This document shows positions 4,670 through 56,351 of a DNA stretch of 64,000 nt, piece after piece. The notes under the pieces are model-generated. The model did no database searches. It was not told the DNA's origin and was given only the letters and a program-made list of their open reading frames with translations. The stretch is from contig CAXWPL010000003.1 in NCBI GenBank assembly GCA_963666215.2, positions 96,001-160,000 on the forward strand, read 5' to 3'. Position numbers and translations under genes: made by a program. Positions within the stretch are counted from its first letter, which is position 1. Each line of letters begins with the position of its first letter. The stretch comes from Acidobacteriota bacterium. GTDB lineage: Bacteria > Acidobacteriota > UBA890 > WLXD01.

Positions 4670-5549
4670 ATGCAGCAGACCGAACGCATCACGGTGATCG
4701 GCGCCGGGACGATGGGTCACGGCATTGCTCAGGTAGCCGCTCAGGCGGGCTACACGATAACTCTCTACGACATCACGGTGGAGCTGGCGGAAGCCGGGTT
4801 GGAGCGCGTCCGCGCCAACCTCGACAAGGGAATCGAGCGCGGCAAGGTGACCGCTGAGCAGCGCCGCCGCTCTCAGTCGTCTGGCCTCGTCGGGCGATCT
4901 GCCCATCGCCGTTGATCAGGCCGATCTCGTAATCGAGGCCGTCCCAGAGAAGCTCGAGCTCAAGCACGAGGTCTTCAAGACGGTGAGCTCACACGCACCC
5001 TCGGGTGCTGTGCTCGCTACCAATACGAGCTCGCTGAGCGTCGCGTCGATCGCCCAGGCCGTGAGCCGTCCGGATCGGCTCATCGGAATGCACTTCTTCA
5101 ATCCGGTGCACATCATGGAGCTGCTCGAGATCGTTGTGCACGATCGAACGTCGCCGCAAACGCTCGAGACGGCACGGGCGGTGGGCGCCGCGATGGGCAA
5201 GACGGCGATCGTCGTCAGAGATTCGCCCGGCTTCGCCACCAGCCGCCTCGGCATCGCGCTCGGCCTCGAGGCGATGCGAATGCTCGAGTCGGGAGTCGCG
5301 AGCGCCGAGGACATCGACACTGCGATGGAGCTCGGCTACCGACACCCCATGGGGCCGCTCGAGCTCACCGATCTGGTGGGACTCGACGTTCGACTCGAGA
5401 TCGCGGAATACCTGCACGACAAGCTCGACGGCCGCGGAAAAAGCGGCAACGCCCGCTTCGAGCCGCCGGAGATCCTGCGAGACCTGGTGGCGGAAGGAAA
5501 TCTAGGCAAGAAGTCCGGGCGCGGCTTCTACGATTGGCCGGAGTCGTAG
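4670..5549 (+). CDS. 3-hydroxybutyryl/3-hydroxyacyl-CoA dehydrogenase (frameshifted near 4860-4910)
   Basis: VIGAGTMGHGIAQ in the first frame; ATNTSSLS, GMHFFNP and HPMGPLELTDLVGLD in the second. Confidence 0.85.
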
Positions 5550-21221: not shown

Positions 21222-22615
21222 TCAGGCGGTGGCCGCGTCGCGCCTCTGGAACGGCACGACACCACGAGGCCCCTCGCCGGGCCGACGCACCAGATGATCG
21301 GTCACCTGATCGGCAGACAACGGCTCCGACAACAGGAACCCTTGGACCTGCTCACAACCTACGGCGCGCAGGTAGCGCAATTGGCTCTCCTTCTCGACGC
21401 CCACCGCCACCACACGCAAGCGAAGCTTGTGGGCCATCGCGACGATCGCCGAGACGAAGCTGGCGTTCTGCGCGTTGTCGGGCAGACCGTGAATGAAGGA
21501 GCTGTCGATCTTGATCTCCTCGATCGGATGCCTCTGCAGGGCGCTCAACGAAGAACATCCCGTACCGAAGTTGTCCACCGACAGTGCGACGCCGAGCTCC
21601 TCGAGTCGTGCAGCGTGGGCACCAGCCAGGTGCCTACCTGGTGCAGCGCCACTTCCTTGAGCTCCAACGTGAAGAAGCGCGGGTCGACCTCGTGCCGCTT
21701 GACGCTGGCGTCGAGACGCTCGACAAAACCCGGTTCGCGCATCTCCTTCGCCGATACGTTCACCGACACGTCAATCGGACCGAAACCGTCGCCTATCCAA
21801 CTTCTCCACTGCGCACAGGCCTGATCGAACACCCACGCGCCGATCTCGCACAGGATCCCGGTTTGTTCGGCCACGAGAATGAAGTCGCCAGCTGGAACGT
21901 TGCCGAGTTGCGGGTGCGTCCAGCGAACGAGCGCCTCGACGCCGGTCAGGCGACGCGAGGTCGCATCGAAGATCGGCTGGTAGAAGAGCTCGAAGCGACG
22001 ATGCGCGAGCGCCTCCTCGAGCATCTGCCTCAGAACACGCCGGTGCGCTGCCGCGCTGTCGACCCGATCTCCGTAGTATCGATAGGAATCGCCCCCCTGC
22101 CCGCGCGCGCCAGGGCACTCGTCGACGCGGCGACAAGCGTGCTCGCCTCAGTGCCGTCGGCGGGGCTGACGGCGATGCCGATGCTGGCCGTGAGGAAGAG
22201 CGTGGCCCGCTCCAACGGTACCGGTCGCCGCAGGGAAGGCCAGCGCCTCCTCGGCCACCCGGGCCGGCACCAGCTCATCCTCGAAGCCGCTGAGCATGAT
22301 GGCGAACTCGTCACGCTCGATGCGCGACAGCGTCGCCTCGTCGTCGGGTTCGGGCCGAGCAACGGTGTCCGTAGAGCGAAGGCAGTCGGCGAGTCGCTCG
22401 GCGAACACGCGCAGGACCTCGCCAGCGGCCTCTGCGCCCAGATGTCGAGCGAGCGGCTCAAACTGATCGATGTCGATGTACAGCGCGGCCACCAGAGATC
22501 CGTCGCGTGCCGCCAGCTGAAGCGCCTTGCGCAACCGATCGTCGAAGAGATTGCGGCCGGGCAATCCGGTGAACGGATCGCGCATCTCGGCCGATTCGCT
22601 GGTCCCTTGGTCCAT
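21222..22615 (-). pseudogene. GGDEF-EAL protein broken by at least three frame changes
   Basis: DPFTGLPGR...IERDEF (degenerate GGDEF), TASIGIA, FYQP...VEALVRW, DNFGTG...IKIDSSF, VQGFLLSEP, spread across several ORFs. Confidence 0.8.
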
Positions 22616-22659
22616 AGCCCGCTGCCCGTCGACGGGCGGCCCTGCCGCACGTCGAGTTA

Positions 22660-22742
22660 TCGACAGTTACTTATAGATATCAATACATATAATAGACAAT
22701 ATAAACAGGTCAAAGCATAAAATCACTATCCAACGAGTGTCA
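22660..22742 (-). promoter_or_regulatory. AT-rich promoter region of the GGDEF-EAL gene
   Basis: Abrupt AT-rich patch; minus-strand TTGACC (22708-22713) followed by TATTAT/TATATG-like -10 candidates. Confidence 0.5.
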
Positions 22743-24187: not shown

Positions 24188-24556
24188 ATGAAGCTCGCCC
24201 ACACGATGATCCGAGTTCGTGACCTGCAGCCCTCGATCGACTTCTACTGCGGGTTCCTCGGGATGCGCGAGATGAGCCGCAAAGACCTGGGCGACGCCAT
24301 GCTGGTCTTCCTCGGCGACGGCCACGGAGCCGTGCTCGTGGAGCTGACTTTCAACAAGGACGGCCGCGAGTACGCGCTGGGAACTCAGTTTGGTCATCTG
24401 GCGTTCTTCTCTGAGGACCTCGAGGCCGTGGTTGCCCAGGTTGAGGAGCGCAGTTGGTGGTATCGGCGATCGAAGCCCGACCCGTCGAGATACATCTTCA
24501 TCAAGGATCCCGATGGCTACGACATCGAGATCCTGCAGGCCAACTCCACGAGTTAG
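24188..24556 (+). CDS. gloA: VOC family protein / lactoylglutathione lyase (glyoxalase I)
   Basis: HTMIRVRDL, ELTFN, FGHLAF and FIKDPDGYDIE motifs. Confidence 0.8.
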   Translation: MKLAHTMIRVRDLQPSIDFYCGFLGMREMSRKDLGDAMLVFLGDGHGAVLVELTFNKDGREYALGTQFGHLAFFSEDLEAVVAQVEERSWWYRRSKPDPSRYIFIKDPDGYDIEILQANSTS

Positions 24557-24638
24557 CTGGCGCCCCGACTTCGACTCCCGAATGCATTTGCGTTCGCCGC
24601 CCGGCGACGCCGCTGCGACCCCAGACACGGCGGATACG

Positions 24639-26353
24639 GTGAATATCCTCGGCTTCAACTGCTACATGCACGATTCGGCAGCCGCGCTGCTGAGCGAGGG
24701 ACAGGTGCGCTGCGCAGTCGCCGAGGAGCGCTTCACGCGGCGAAAGCACGTGGGCGACTTTCCAGCCGAGGCGATCCGCTACTGTCTGCGCGATGGTGGC
24801 CTCGAAGTCGACGACCTGGACTGCGTGACGTTCTTCTACAAGCCCTGGGACGGCTTCCTGAAGCGCGTGCTGCACGCAGTGCGGCACCTACCGCACGCCG
24901 GCGACCTGGCGAGCCGCCGTGCCGGGTCGTGGAACCGCTTCCGCACTGCCGACGACGCGTTCAGAACCGATCTCGGCATCGAGCCGGCGGTGGTCCGGAG
25001 TTCCTTTTCGTCGAACACCACCTGGCCCACGCCGCCAGCGCCTTCTTCTGCTCGCCGTTCGAAGAGGCGGCGATCCTGTCGATCGATGGCGCCGGCGAGT
25101 GGACCACAACCCTCGCCGGCCGAGGCGTAGGCAGCCAAATCGAGAAGCTCACAGAGGTCAGCTTTCCGCACTCGCTCGGCAACGTCTACAGCGCGGTGAC
25201 TCAGTACCTCGGCTTCCGACCCAACGGAGGCGAGGGCAAGGTGATGGGGCTGGCGCCCTACGGCGACCCGGCACGCTTCATCGACACGTTCCAGGACATG
25301 GTGCGGCTCTCCGACGGCGGCCGCTTCGAGATCGAGCTCAGCTATTTCCAGCACCACCTCGGCAAGGAGCGCCGCTACAGCGACCGGCTCATCGACGCGC
25401 TCGGCCCGGCCCGCGAGCCCGAGAGCGACATGACGGGTCATTACGAAGACATCGCCGCCGCTCTGCAGCTACGACTTGAAGAGACCGTGGTCCACCTGGC
25501 GCGCCACCTGCAGCGGACTACCGGGCTCAAGCGCCTATGTATGGCCGGGGGCGTGGCGCTCAACAGTGTTGCCAACGGCAAGGTGCTCGCCGAAACCGAC
25601 TTCGACGAGATCTTCATCCAGCCCGCCGCCGGCGACGACGGCACGAGCTTGGGAGGAGCGCTGTACGCGCACGTGTGCCTGAAAGGCGGCGAGCGCCCCG
25701 AGCCGATGCGCCACGCCTACCTCGGACCGCAGTACAGCGACGACGACTGTCGCGGAGCGCTCGAATCGGCGGGGCTGCGCCCGGTCGCCGATGTGGCCGA
25801 ATCGCAGCTCGCCGATCGGATGGCCGAGCTGCTCGAGCAACAGAAGATCGTGGCGCTCTACCAGGGTCGCGCCGAGTTCGGTCCGCGTGCGCTTGGCAAC
25901 CGCTCGATTCTGACCGACCCGCGAAGCCAGCAGATGAAGGACACCCTCAACGCACGGGTCAAGCGCCGCGAAGGCTTCCGGCCGTTCGCACCAGTCGTGC
26001 TAGCCGAGCGGCGCCACGAGTTCTTTTCGGGCCAACACGGCTCTCCCTACATGCTGCTGGTCGAGGACGTTCGCGCCGACAAGGCCGACGAGCTGCAGGC
26101 GATCACGCACGTCGACGGCACGGCGCGAGTGCAGGACATCGAGCGCGACATCAACCCGCTCTACTACGACACGGTTGCCGCTTTCGGCGAGCGTACCGGC
26201 GTTCCAGTGCTGCTCAACACTTCCTTCAACGTGCGCGGTGAACCGATCATCAACACCCCCGAGGAGGCGGTTCTCGGCTTCCTGAACATGGACATCGACG
26301 CGCTGGTCTTGGGTCGGTACTTGCTGCAAAAAGAAGATGTCGCGACCGGCTGA
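24639..26353 (+). CDS. NodU/CmcH family carbamoyltransferase (frameshift near 24990)
   Basis: HDSAAAL..EERFTRRKH; HHLAHAASAF, DGAGE, EGKVMGLAPYG, AGGVALN, EFGPRALGNRS, RPFAP, THVDGTAR and LLNTSFN motifs. Confidence 0.9.
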
Positions 26354-51483: not shown

Positions 51484-53691
51484 ATGCTCCAACTCACACA
51501 GGACCTCATGTCGAACCAGCAAAAGCTCGCCGTCTACGTCCGGTGGCTGAGCTTCCTGGCGCTGATCTATCTGTTGTCGTTCGGCGCCCCGGGCTCGATT
51601 GCACCGCAGGTCGCGCTGATTGTCGTGGCTGCGCTATCGAACGTCGGCTTGTCGCGTCTCTCCGTCGCCATGTGGGACCATCCCGTCTTGCTGCCTGCGA
51701 TCACGCTGCTCGACGTCTCGATCCTGACAAGCAGCATGGTCCTCGGCAGCGGTTTCAATCGGGACCTGCTGTTCGTCTACTTCGTTCTCGTGGCGTTGGT
51801 TGCCGCGGCGCCGAGCCTGAAATGGGGAACGGCGGCCGCGGCGGGAGCTTTGAGCGGCTACGCGGTCTACCTTTCGCTCGAGAACGGTAGAGCACTTCTG
51901 CAAAGCCCGGAGCTCATCGGGCAGATCGGCCTGCTCTTCAGCGCCGCCATCGTGTACGCGGGCTTGACTGAAGCCAGCAAGGTACGGCTCCAGGAAGCCG
52001 CCGCGCAAGGGCAACTCGTGAGCTGGGTCGACAAGATGAGCGCTGCGTTTTCGGAGGATTTCGACGCCATCGAGCTCATCCGACAAGTGCTCATCGACGC
52101 CCAACGGACCTTCTCCGGCAACGCTCGCAGCTCTCTCGTAGAGCTCACCGGCGAAGTCTTTCAGGTCATCGCCTCGAGCGACGATCGAGAGTTTCGCGAC
52201 AGGCCGCTCAACCTCGACCTTTACCCGGAGCTGCGGCTCGTGGTGAACGGCACCGAGCCTATCGTCATCGACGACATCAAGAAGGACCCCATCACCGCAC
52301 CCGTGCGCGAGCAGGTCGAAGGGCTCGAATTCTCCTCGCTACTGATCTGCCCTGTGCTACTCGATGGTGACAGCAACGACGGCATGGGTCACATCGTGCT
52401 GCGTGTGGCGCGATCTCACGGCGTGTTCACGCCGAGTCAGGTCGCGACAGCACAACACCTCGCCAGCGCCATCGCTCTCATCTTCCGACATGCGCGGATG
52501 CGCGACAGCGTCGAGAAGAACGAACGCATGCCCTTGGTGACCCAGATCACCTCGGGCGTCTCAGACAGCTTTGGTGACATCTTGCAGACTGTCCTGGTTT
52601 CGGCGGAGCTCTTGCGCAAGGAGGTCGTGCGTCAGCAGAACGGCGGCGGCGTGGTCCGCTTCGACCGCGAGGCGATGAGTCGATTCGACGCCATCGACGT
52701 AGCCGTCAGGGAGGGACTGACCATCACGGAGCGCCTTGGCGCCTGGACGCAACTGGGTAACGAGGCCGGCTCAGCCGAGGCTAGAGACCATCAGGTGCTC
52801 GCCCCGGCATCGGTGATGGAAGACGCATGGAGGTATGCGCAGCCCCACTGGATCAAGCGATCGGCCTCCCGCCCGCTGGAGTTCGGCACCGCCATCGAAG
52901 TCGACCCGCCCAAGATCACCGGCAACGCCGCCGAGCTGCGCGAGGTGCTGATCCATTTGATCGAAAACGCGATCGACGCGATGCCGAAAGGAGGCGTGCT
53001 CACCCTCGGGTTGCGTTCGACGGAAGACTCGGTCGTCTTCACCGTTAGCGACACGGGCGTCGGCATCGCGCCAGAAAACCGCCACAAGATCTTCGATCCG
53101 CTGTTCACCACCAAGGGATCGGCTGGTACCGGGCTGGGCCTGAACATCGCCAAGTCGATGGCGACGCGCCACAACGGCACTCTGCGGCTCGACCCTACGA
53201 CCTCGATCGGTACCAGCTTCGAATTCAGCCTGCCGATTGCGACCGATCAGGAAGAGCTCGACGACGGAGCCGAGCCAGTCGCGCTCGCCGCGCCATCGCG
53301 TCGTGTGCTCCTGGTGGAGAACAACCGGCAGGTTCGCGACGTCATGGAACGGGCGCTAGAGGCGTCAGACATTGATGTCGATACCGTGGCATCGGTCGAC
53401 GAAGCAGAGGTCTTGCTCCAGACAGAGCGGCACTACGACGGCCTGGTGGTCGACGCCCAAATCCCGCCGAGCAGCCTTGGCAGCTTCCTCGATGCCGTGC
53501 TCGAGTCGCGCCCCGAGTTGTCGACGCGAGTGTTGTTCTATTCGAACGGTCGCCCATCGAGCACCGTCGTAGATCTTCAAGCCGGCTACGGCTACAGCTA
53601 CGTCGACCGATCGGCCGGCCTGGCGGCCCTCAAGGACGCCCTCGAGAAGCTCTCGAGTGGCGGCAGCCAACAACGGCACCAGGCCGCTTGA
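51484..53691 (+). CDS. Membrane-bound GAF-HATPase-receiver hybrid histidine-kinase-like protein
   Basis: TM N-terminus, GAF-like region, N box (LIENAIDAM), G1 (DTGVGI), F (FTTK) and G2 (GTGLGL) boxes, C-terminal REC-like domain. Confidence 0.85.
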   Translation: MLQLTQDLMSNQQKLAVYVRWLSFLALIYLLSFGAPGSIAPQVALIVVAALSNVGLSRLSVAMWDHPVLLPAITLLDVSILTSSMVLGSGFNRDLLFVYFVLVALVAAAPSLKWGTAAAAGALSGYAVYLSLENGRALLQSPELIGQIGLLFSAAIVYAGLTEASKVRLQEAAAQGQLVSWVDKMSAAFSEDFDAIELIRQVLIDAQRTFSGNARSSLVELTGEVFQVIASSDDREFRDRPLNLDLYPELRLVVNGTEPIVIDDIKKDPITAPVREQVEGLEFSSLLICPVLLDGDSNDGMGHIVLRVARSHGVFTPSQVATAQHLASAIALIFRHARMRDSVEKNERMPLVTQITSGVSDSFGDILQTVLVSAELLRKEVVRQQNGGGVVRFDREAMSRFDAIDVAVREGLTITERLGAWTQLGNEAGSAEARDHQVLAPASVMEDAWRYAQPHWIKRSASRPLEFGTAIEVDPPKITGNAAELREVLIHLIENAIDAMPKGGVLTLGLRSTEDSVVFTVSDTGVGIAPENRHKIFDPLFTTKGSAGTGLGLNIAKSMATRHNGTLRLDPTTSIGTSFEFSLPIATDQEELDDGAEPVALAAPSRRVLLVENNRQVRDVMERALEASDIDVDTVASVDEAEVLLQTERHYDGLVVDAQIPPSSLGSFLDAVLESRPELSTRVLFYSNGRPSSTVVDLQAGYGYSYVDRSAGLAALKDALEKLSSGGSQQRHQAA

Positions 53692-53844
53692 GGCGCCGCG
53701 GCCTGTAAGCCTCCATACGACCTCGCAGAGCCCGAGCCTGGCGCCGCCGGCACCTGCCGGCCAGCAAGTGCGACAATCGTCTGCAACCGCACGCCGATGC
53801 GCGTACGATTTTCGGAAGGCGATCGACACTTGTCCGGAGGCACT

Positions 53845-54885
53845 ATGACTGGCAGGAGCTCCAGGCTGAAAGCACTGACGGCCGGCAGCGGCCTCGTTCT
53901 GATGGCGGCTTCGATTGGCGCCACTGCGGCCGTTGCCCATGCGGCGGCGAGAGGCGGCGGGCAGGCGGCCCAGCAACCCGAGGGCTACCGGCAGATGCTG
54001 CCGCGCGGAGGGATCCCGGCGATCGACGAGCCGCAGTGGGTCGCTGCGAGCGAGGCCAACATACCGGGCCCGGCCTATGTGTTCGGCATCGTCGTCGAAG
54101 GGCAAGCACGCGCCTTCAGCATCAACCTGTTGAACACGCATGAGGTGGTCAACGACAAGATCGGTGCGACCGCCTACGCCGCCGTTTGGTGACCGCTCGC
54201 CAACACGGCTGTCGTGTACAGCCGCGCCTATGGCGGACGCGAGCTCAACTTTGAAGCCTCTGGAGGCCTGATCAACGCCTCGCTGGTAATGCAGGATCGC
54301 GAGACCAGCTCGTACTGGCCCCTCATGAGCGGCAAGTCTCTCGCCGGCGAGTACGAGGGCACCCCCCTCGAGGAGCTTCCGACCGGCGAAAAGGTCCGCT
54401 GGCGCGAGTGGAAGGCCGCTCACCCCGACACACTCGTGCTGTCGGTAAACGGGCGGCAGCATGCTGGCGATGCGTACGCTAGCTACTGGACCGACCCCGA
54501 CGGCTTCAGTGGCTTCACCGCGGAAGACGATCGCCTCGAAACAAAAACGCCGATCTACGCCTTCCGGTCGGGCGACGTGAGCTACGCCGTCGAACTGGCA
54601 AAGGTCTCGGGCGGTCACAGCTTCGACGCCGACGGCAAGCAGATCTTCCTGTATCGCAAGCCGAACGACCCCCTGTTCGCCTCGACCGCGGCGTACATGA
54701 CCAGCGGCGCCGGCTTCGTCGAACGGGACGGGATCTGGGTTCACGTCGATTCGGGAGCAACCTTCGACGACGCGTCGGGCGAATTCACCGGCGCAGCGCC
54801 TGGCGAGATCGAACGCCTGCCGGGCTTCGATACCTTCTGGTACAACTGGAGCCTCACCAACCCCGACACCGAGTTGCTCGAGTAG
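53845..54885 (+). CDS. DUF3179 family selenoprotein (UGA=Sec at 54190-54192)
   Basis: ORFs 53797-54192 and 54214-54885 share one frame: GIPAIDEP...HEVVND...AVW-U-PLANTAVVY...LVMQDRETSSYW; hairpin right after the UGA. Confidence 0.85.
54193..54235 (+). promoter_or_regulatory. Bacterial SECIS-like hairpin
   Basis: 13 nt after UGA: stem cggctgt (54206-12), loop cgtgt, acagccg (54218-24); lower stem cgcca/tggcg. Confidence 0.7.
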
Positions 54886-54950
54886 CGCCGCCCAGAAATC
54901 CGCTCCAGGTAGAAAACAAGCGCAAGCAAGATCGCAGTGCGACCCGTCCG

Positions 54951-56351
54951 CTACCCGCTGTGGCTGACGGGTCGTGCCGCGTCGCCGGGCACGCCTAGCC
55001 AACCGAGCTGGCGACCGAGGGCATAGACGGCCGCCCCGAGTAGCATCGTGCCCAGCGCCGCGAAGGTCGGCAGGGGCGCGTCGACAAGTCCGTTGGCCCA
55101 AGCGGCCACCGTAATGCCCACGAAAACGAGCGCCGGCAGCGGGAACAACGGCGTCGCGAACACGGCTTCGCCTGGCGCCCCGTCGCGGAGCCGCACAACA
55201 AAGAGCGCGGCAACTGTGAGACCGGCGAAGAGCAGCAGCGCCGAACCGATGTAGGTCAACAGCAGACCGAAGGATCCGGTAAGCGCGAGCAGCGCCGCGA
55301 GCACGCCTTGCGCCACGATGGCAATGCGTGGCACACGACCGGAGGCCGAGATCCGCGCCAGCGCGCTCGGCGCGAGCTGGTCACGTGCCATGGCGAAGTA
55401 GATGCGCGGACCGACTGCTGTCATGGCGCTTACCGATCCGAACATAGCGAAGGCGATGAGCGCGCTCACCGCCAACGCGCCGCCGTGGCCGAACAGGCGT
55501 TCGGCCGCAACCTGGCCCACCGCGATGTCCGCCTGCCACTCCGCCTCGGGCAGGGCGTAGAAGAACAGAGCGTTGAGCGCCAGATAGACAACGGCCACGA
55601 CCGCGGTTCCCAGGAGCAGCGCCCGAGGCAAATTTCGACGCGGCTCGCTCACTTCACCGGCCATGTAGGCGGCAGCGTTCCATCCGGAATAGGCGAAGCT
55701 CACCTGCAGCAGCGCAACCCACCAGCTGCTTTGCCCCGCGGTGCTCGCTCGTAGCCCCGCCGCGCTGCCGGCGCCGGTCGATAGGCCCGCGACCACGAAC
55801 ACCGCGATACCGACCAGAACCACCGCCGCCAGTGTCGTTTGGAAGCGTGAGCTGGAACGCACACCGATGCAATGCAGAACCGTCAGCATCGCCACCAGGC
55901 CCGCGGCACCGAGGGCGGCCTGTGAAACAGGCCATCCGACCACCACCGGCGCATCCGATTGCCAGCCCGGAATCAGCGGGGCAACGTAGGCCATCACACC
56001 GAGCGACGATGCGGCAACCGCTGCCGAGAACCCCACCACGAACGAGGTCCAGCCACTCAGGAACCCCCAAAGCGGACCGAAGACACGCGACAGGTAGCGG
56101 TACTCCCCGCCCGCCCCCGGCATGCGCGTAGCCAGCTCGGCGTAGCACAGCGCCCCGCTCAGCCCGAGCAGCGCTCCAGCAGCCCAGACCCCGAGCGAAC
56201 CGAGCGCGCTCCCGGTGGCCACGCGAACAAAGGCGGGCACAGTGAAGATCCCCGACCCGATCATGTTGGTCACCACGAAGGCGGCCGCCGCGGCGAAGCC
56301 GAGCGAGCGGCGCAAGTCGATAACCGCCGAAGACGTCGGGCGCTCGAGCAC
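54951..56351 (-). CDS. APC family amino acid permease
   Basis: MIGSGIF, YAELATRMPGAGGEY, FAYSGWNAA and GPRIYFAMARD motifs; start approximate. Confidence 0.9.
   Translation of the reverse strand: MLERPTSSAVIDLRRSLGFAAAAAFVVTNMIGSGIFTVPAFVRVATGSALGSLGVWAAGALLGLSGALCYAELATRMPGAGGEYRYLSRVFGPLWGFLSGWTSFVVGFSAAVAASSLGVMAYVAPLIPGWQSDAPVVVGWPVSQAALGAAGLVAMLTVLHCIGVRSSSRFQTTLAAVVLVGIAVFVVAGLSTGAGSAAGLRASTAGQSSWWVALLQVSFAYSGWNAAAYMAGEVSEPRRNLPRALLLGTAVVAVVYLALNALFFYALPEAEWQADIAVGQVAAERLFGHGGALAVSALIAFAMFGSVSAMTAVGPRIYFAMARDQLAPSALARISASGRVPRIAIVAQGVLAALLALTGSFGLLLTYIGSALLLFAGLTVAALFVVRLRDGAPGEAVFATPLFPLPALVFVGITVAAWANGLVDAPLPTFAALGTMLLGAAVYALGRQLGWLGVPGDAARPVSHSG

Follow-up and report, generated by a model that had tools for sequence, protein, structure and literature searches.

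DUF3179 is listed among the prokaryotic selenoprotein families in the tables of two reviews (PMC9312934, PMC13188914), which give its selenocysteine (Sec) motif as UxxC/T. The assumption of the original prediction for the DNA studied here, namely that Sec-containing DUF3179 members are already recognised, is thus borne out by both tables. The two reviews credit the DUF3179 selenoprotein to Zhang and Gladyshev 2007 (PMC1976440). Since the name DUF3179 is not used in the abstract and section 12 of PMC1976440, the tie to this study rests on the reviews' citation. No function for DUF3179 is given in the literature matching the full-text term 'DUF3179', where one further paper beside the two reviews names a DUF3179 protein in a table only. 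With regard to decoding, a consensus model of bacterial SECIS elements is available (the bSECISearch model, legend of Figure 2 in PMC13188914). It comprises an apical loop of 3-9 nt, an upper stem of 4-16 bp, a G within the first two loop positions, a UGA-to-loop spacing of 16-37 nt and a minimum free energy of at most -7.5 kcal/mol.

Here, we investigated a candidate member of this family within a 64-kb stretch of DNA, which we refer to as the window. The locus consists of a single reading frame that runs from an ATG at 53845 to a TAG at 54883-54885, with a TGA at 54190-54192 as its sole interruption. That is, the two open reading frames (ORFs) that had been reported to be separated by a TGA alone are indeed in the same frame. 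If the TGA is translated as U, the frame comprises 346 codons with Sec at codon 116 (U116) and zero Cys. Both the junction context AVW-U-PLANTAVVY and the absence of Cys from the joined protein agree with what had been read from the sequence before. An in-frame ATG is also present upstream (53797); we favour the start at 53845 because it is preceded by a GGAGG at a distance of 4 nt. Given the comparisons reported below, 53845-54885 is very probably a genuine Sec-encoding DUF3179 gene with a working-type SECIS, i.e., it would form one gene for an exported, selenocysteine-containing DUF3179 protein. The respective features are as follows.

51484..53691, + strand: hybrid histidine kinase, upstream (Pfam HATPase_c; a neighbour kept in the closest relatives)
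53836..53840, + strand: Shine-Dalgarno-like GGAGG, 4 nt 5' of the ATG at 53845, read from the sequence
53845..54885, + strand: putative complete DUF3179 selenoprotein gene (translation with TGA as U, PF11376 match)
53845..53943, + strand: predicted Sec-type signal peptide, residues 1-33, from sequence features
54190..54192, + strand: UGA, probably read as selenocysteine (U116; alignment with Cys, TGA kept in related loci)
54206..54224, + strand: putative SECIS hairpin, stem 54206-54212/54218-54224, loop CGUGU 54213-54217 (fold and covariation)
54214..54885, + strand: 223-codon ORF as reported by gene callers, with its GTG start inside the SECIS loop (ORF list)

The read-through product matches the Pfam profile PF11376 with an E-value of 1.1e-54 and 186.3 bits (curated cut-off 27). 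Here, residues 55-342 correspond to profile positions 2-292 of 292, i.e., to the whole domain, such that the alignment of the joined frame to DUF3179, which had been proposed as a check, returns a full-length domain. For the read-through protein, no NCBIfam family was found.

A homology search matched 528 proteins, and the following numbers refer to the best 120 of these 528. Among them, 32 align with 76% or more of the query, while 88 are pieces of 211-239 aa that span only 62-66% of it and are located 3' of the stop. Eight of these 88 short matches were inspected, and all eight start with M/V-Y-x-R, that is, at a GTG seven codons past the UGA and within the SECIS loop. One such short match (P0002) has 223 aa and is 97% identical. 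Given the 88/120 pieces and the 8/8 inspected starts, we conclude that public gene calls routinely split the relatives at the same point. The gene had been called a hidden selenoprotein. With regard to gene calling this is appropriate, since 88 of the best 120 matches are C-terminal pieces, but it does not extend further, as the family is already listed.

In 26 full-length homologs, the column of U116 is occupied by Cys (23) or Ser (3), and the Cys in 23/26 supports the claim that Sec stands in place of the first Cys, i.e., that the UGA falls on a conserved Cys column. Position +3 is Ala in 25/26 of these homologs, with the three Ser-type ones included. One Cys-type member of the clade (P0022) is named 'DUF3179 domain-containing (seleno)protein' by NCBI. 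We also looked at the family more broadly, using an exhaustive search of cluster representatives that returned 7507 proteins at E <= 0.001. From the best 150 representatives, the 101 with a length of 280-700 residues were compiled together with the query into a motif table of 102 rows. CxxC is found at the site in 73/102 rows, in accordance with the C-P-L-C motif that had been assumed for the family. Further rows show CxxA (11/102, query counted), CxxT (6/102) and CxxS (1/102), and in 11/102 the first motif position is Ser, Asp or Gly. Among the more distant representatives, Cys is present at the site in 91/101. Two proteins, P0123 (1587 aa) and P0128 (1004 aa), contain several DUF3179 stretches each (6 and 4 matched, respectively).

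Compared to the tabulated DUF3179 selenoprotein, the gene is alike in its membership of PF11376, in Sec at the first CxxC-type position and in a SECIS just 3' of the UGA. It is unlike in its motif, i.e., the reviews' tables list UxxC/T, whereas this gene and 73/73 of its TGA relatives (see below) are UxxA. Instead of the Cys or Thr of the review motif, position +3 thus holds Ala, a motif variant inside PF11376. This UxxA variant is common in genomes and absent from the motif column of the reviews' tables. When related to the Cys-type C-P-L-C proteins, which make up the bulk of PF11376, the whole-length domain and the strand-Cys-Pro-Leu position are shared. On the other hand, C-P-L-C proteins have two Cys that might join in an internal disulfide or make up a two-ligand site, while members of this clade carry a single Sec or Cys, with Ala at +3. 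The Ala had been interpreted as the loss of the resolving Cys. The residue is as stated, but it was not lost in this gene specifically, because Ala is fixed clade-wide (73/73 TGA loci, 25/26 homologs); judged by these alignments, it marks a DUF3179 sub-clade.

To see the codon itself, we turned to genome sequences. A genome scan identified 253 related loci, of which the best 80, i.e., those nearest to the Sec-type query, were analysed. They derive mostly from metagenome-assembled genomes of Acidobacteriota, KSB1, Calditrichota, Gammaproteobacteria and Planctomycetota, with a top identity of 61%. The aligned codon is readable in 78 loci and is TGA in 73 of them, a fraction that overstates the family-wide share of Sec because the 80 loci were chosen as the closest to a Sec-type query. 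The other readable codons are TGT (2), TGC (1), TGG (1) and AGC (1). All TGA loci (73/73) encode the W-U-P-L-A motif.

In two of the 80 loci the codon is unreadable, since one (L071) ends ahead of the site and the other (L047) has an in-frame deletion. The latter, which is from a Halieaceae metagenome-assembled genome and encodes protein P0102, lacks exactly the W-U-P-L-A-N segment, which leaves a product of 272 residues with the active-site stretch gone. The TGG (Trp) is found in an Acidobacteriota locus (L022, codon at about 5332-5334), yet the CGUGU loop and 5/7 pairs of the hairpin are kept there. A recent change from TGA to TGG or an error in base calling could account for this.

The hairpin in question is CGGCUGU-CGUGU-ACAGCCG (54206-54224). 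It forms 7 perfect pairs, begins 13 nt 3' of the UGA and has an apical loop of 5 nt in which the second and fourth nucleotides are G; the perfect 7-bp hairpin with a G-containing loop is therefore present just as the original prediction had described it. It is also the minimum-energy fold of 54190-54230 (-11.3 kcal/mol). Measured against the bSECISearch model (PMC13188914), the hairpin is alike in loop (5 nt), stem (7 bp) and energy as well as in the G at loop position 2, here followed by U, and in the spacing of 20 nt. Unlike the model, it comes without a conserved lower stem, and it matches no Rfam family.

As a feature of a single sequence, the hairpin is only mildly unusual. Its folding energy is no better than that of shuffles (z -0.29 for 54190-54230, z -1.45 for 76 nt). 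Furthermore, 19 of the 1508 TGA trinucleotides in the window (1.3%) precede a perfect hairpin of at least 7 bp that obeys the loop and spacing rules. It is the comparative pairing that sets the hairpin apart from chance. Here, we used a gapless alignment of 87 nt comprising the window and the 73 TGA loci, in total 73 distinct sequences. Among these, 91.8% of the 511 cells of the named 7-bp hairpin are in standard pairs, compared to 19.6-51.1% in slid controls. The covariation score is 0.170 vs. 0.071 in shuffles, with 0/500 shuffles as high. Compensatory changes are observed at 3/7 hairpin pairs, i.e., at 33-43 (CG 56, UA 14, AU 1), at 30-46 (GC 51, UA 7) and at 32-44 (CG 43, GC 4). Positions 32-44 are unpaired in 26/73 distinct sequences and positions 30-46 in 15/73. 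Within the codons GUC GUG UAC, which form the loop and its closing, the third positions are conserved to at least 90%, while other nearby four-fold sites vary. In combination with the features shared with the consensus model, the covariation substantiates the expected SECIS just 3' of the UGA.

Not all structure predictions return this hairpin. A de novo RNAalifold run on 74 sequences yields a weak 4-bp helix only (columns 26-29/37-40, -1.43 kcal/mol) and does not recover the named hairpin, which was tested explicitly after the RNAalifold helix had been set aside. When 54185-54260 is folded alone, another hairpin with the UGA inside it is preferred, which is not significant. The further lower stem that had been noted can be formed in this sequence (GCUCGC 54195-54200 with GCGAGC 54238-54243) but is not conserved, as only 30.1% of its cells are paired. 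An alternative register of the lower stem (59.4% of cells paired) is not conserved either. Rfam reports nothing in the window at gathering thresholds and, around the site at E <= 10, a chance match only.

In the loci without TGA, the hairpin pairs are kept to different degrees, namely 7/7 in L054, 5/7 in each of L042, L044 and L022, and 3/7 in L079, where the loop of both L042 and L044 is CGUCU. The hairpin is thus partly kept in non-Sec relatives, three Cys-type genes being available for this comparison, and part of its conservation may therefore stem from the conserved peptide.

Next to the decoding, the location and chemistry of the product are of interest. The N-terminus features basic residues (R4, R7, K9), a hydrophobic stretch and AHA ahead of A34 and looks like a Sec-type signal peptide. 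A hydrophobic 12-residue window is found 86-126 residues before U in 63/74 Sec-type genes. Such a signal peptide would carry the protein over the inner membrane and, once cleaved past AHA33, the mature form would have about 313 residues, none of them cysteine. The AlphaFold2 model, based on a 27-sequence alignment, consists mainly of beta-strands (pLDDT 89.6, pTM 0.84), with residues 1-40 disordered (pLDDT about 47-50). It places U116 at the end of strand 109-116, which is followed by a short helix (117-119). A Foldseek comparison of the model with the PDB gives no chain at E <= 0.001 (best E 5.3e-3, TM at most 0.18); the beta-propeller and toxin-domain chains among its results were dismissed as chance matches. 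A profile search of PDB sequences likewise returns a chance match only (E 0.36). Given a mainly beta-stranded model with no PDB match, a thioredoxin fold around the motif was not found.

U116 would hence take the place of the first Cys of C-P-L-C, at the end of a beta-strand ahead of a short helix. Because the second Cys is Ala throughout the clade, the selenol would act alone. This extends to the remainder of the chain. We counted the Cys residues C-terminal to U in the 72 Sec-type genes whose C-terminus is complete: 43 have none, 27 have two, one has a single Cys and one has four. With 43/72 Cys-free, there is no conserved resolving Cys. A lone selenol could, as a periplasmic nucleophile, form a selenenylsulfide with the thiol of a substrate or partner, or a selenenic acid. 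We tentatively read U116 as the lone-selenol redox nucleophile of an exported protein, an assignment we deem plausible rather than probable; the Ser found at the site in three homologs and the lack of a similar fold among solved structures speak against it. Single-Cys or single-Sec redox enzymes include 1-Cys peroxiredoxins and glutathione peroxidases. The protein resembles them in that its chain contains a single nucleophilic chalcogen and lacks a resolving Cys, which is an analogy of mechanism only. It differs in its fold, which is unrelated as far as tested, i.e., an all-beta model without PDB neighbour.

The leading alternative to redox chemistry is a role in binding or carrying a metal or metalloid. 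Here, the gene would be a selenoprotein as well, but U116 would serve as ligand or carrier of a metal or metalloid (e.g., copper or mercury), or of selenium or sulfur, and not as redox catalyst. CxxC, found in 73/102 family rows, is also a common metal-binding motif, and an exported (predicted) protein without resolving Cys would fit such a role. Metal-handling selenoproteins also appear beside DUF3179 in the tables of PMC9312934 and PMC13188914. Against this, a lone residue makes a weak ligand for metal binding, and the 78 loci show no conserved metal-transport or resistance genes but instead ECF sigma factors (19), zf-HC2 anti-sigma factors (9) and a hybrid histidine kinase that adjoins the DUF3179 gene upstream (6/78). 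Such a ligand or carrier role appears unlikely to us, while being the strongest competitor of the redox reading.

The remaining alternatives concern the UGA itself. If it is read as Sec, as the sequence comparisons suggest, decoding would proceed as follows. The CGUGU loop, 20 nt past the UGA, lies where SelB, together with Sec-tRNA(Sec), is recruited by SECIS elements in bacteria, and the hairpin would then be unwound and translated as T-A-V-V-Y-S-R. Absent selenium or SelB, the chain would end after residue 115. Termination at UGA is in general expected for Sec decoding under scarce selenium, which can also be counted for a use of both parts as separate products, namely a peptide of about 115 residues that ends at the UGA and is secreted, and a protein of 223 residues that starts at the GTG at 54214 and stays in the cytoplasm. 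Gene callers do predict the second ORF, here as well as in 88 of the best 120 matches, but its GTG lies inside the conserved SECIS loop and has no GGAGG-like ribosome-binding site ahead of it. Moreover, the Cys-type homologs are single chains over the junction, and the structure model (pLDDT 89.6) puts both parts into one domain. Two used products are thus very unlikely.

TGA terminates 12/28 Pfam-backed ORFs in the window and, as an ordinary stop, is therefore not reassigned. The other stops of these 28 ORFs are TAG (16) and TAA (0), at a G+C content of the window of 65.2%. We also searched the window for a second selenoprotein. There are 29 other candidates in which long frames are open on either side of a TGA, and in none of them does a Pfam domain reach across the TGA. 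Concerning the Sec machinery, which the original prediction expects elsewhere in the genome, neither selA nor selB nor selD is found among the 84 ORFs of at least 200 residues in the 64-kb window, and no tRNA genes, tRNA-Sec included, were detected in it.

In 5/80 related loci, on the other hand, a tRNA-Sec is encoded downstream of the DUF3179 gene on the opposite strand, at a distance of 67 nt to about 2.2 kb. The respective ARAGORN calls, with which Rfam RF01852 agrees at 65-70 bits, are given in coordinates of each locus.

L004, 2810-2904, - strand: tRNA-Sec
L005, 8092-8188, - strand: tRNA-Sec
L006, 6011-6105, - strand: tRNA-Sec
L008, 7591-7687, - strand: tRNA-Sec
L067, 3947-4045, - strand: tRNA-Sec

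This linkage of selC to a selenoprotein gene is far commoner than chance. All five loci share a common gene order with ECF sigma and anti-sigma factor upstream and, because they form one gene-order group, may represent one event. In L005, L008 and L067, the genes next to the tRNA-Sec were examined for sel genes, but none is one; they encode peptidases, an acetyltransferase and a glycosyltransferase.

These observations also bear on a read-through of the UGA as Trp, Cys or Gly, be it by near-cognate decoding or by a changed code. The Trp codon of L022 with its CGUGU loop kept and the window without visible Sec machinery are compatible with such a mechanism. It is nevertheless extremely unlikely, given that TGA stops 12/28 Pfam-backed ORFs, that 0/29 other candidates show a spanning domain, that the aligned residue is Cys, Sec's usual counterpart, and that a tRNA-Sec adjoins the gene in five related loci. 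Finally, a nonsense mutation or sequencing error, i.e., a dead or misread gene, has next to no probability: broken-looking genes do occur elsewhere in the window (GGDEF-EAL, 21398-22666, - strand; carbamoyltransferase, 24390-26353), but the TGA is present in 73/78 related loci from several phyla, the sequence downstream of it still matches the full Pfam profile, the hairpin covaries, and the 97% identical P0002 is also called only past the break.

Taken as a selenoprotein gene, the locus has several implications. It is a real but ordinary selenoprotein of an already listed selenoprotein family. Since the family, its Sec form and the decoding are already recognised, it adds a member and the UxxA motif variant but no new principle. 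Joining the cut pieces corrects the annotation, which for 88 of the best 120 matches consists of C-terminal fragments, and raises the selenoprotein count in metagenome-assembled Acidobacteriota, KSB1, Calditrichota, Planctomycetota and marine Gammaproteobacteria. In addition, the presence of the gene makes it likely that its host uses Sec. The clade is an abundant one of (predicted) exported and mostly Sec-containing proteins, whose conserved single Sec is a clear residue to test.

A further-reaching interpretation, which we regard as doubtful, is that the W-U-P-L-A clade consists of exported, near-always-Sec lone-selenol enzymes of unsolved fold that are wired to envelope signalling, via either ECF sigma and anti-sigma factors or a hybrid histidine kinase, and, in one lineage, linked to tRNA-Sec. 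It is based on the Sec in 73/78 loci, usually without Cys. If true, the clade would represent a new kind of periplasmic selenium chemistry, beyond a Sec version of a CxxC protein.

With regard to regulation, the hybrid histidine kinase upstream may control the gene, as suggested by conserved gene order only. Over 725 residues, the kinase of the window (51484-53691) is 47% identical to its counterpart in L045, the ORF that precedes the DUF3179 gene there. A promoter and terminator scan of 53500-55200 gave nothing useful. Between the convergent DUF3179 and amino-acid permease genes, we observe a 9-bp perfect inverted repeat (54940-54948/54966-54974) with a 17-nt loop. The terminator scan missed this repeat, which extends into the end of the permease ORF and lacks a T-run.

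Two further genes of the window deviate from their domain profiles. In the GGDEF-EAL gene (21398-22666, - strand), both domain matches are cut short, GGDEF at position 82 of its 161-position profile and EAL at position 129 of 236. Sequence that looks out of frame lies between the two matches and behind them, and the gene seems to be frameshifted or degraded. The carbamoyltransferase (24390-26353, + strand) is spread over two overlapping ORFs, one matching positions 2-77 of the N-domain and the other positions 125-346 together with the C-domain, which suggests a frameshift or an assembly indel.
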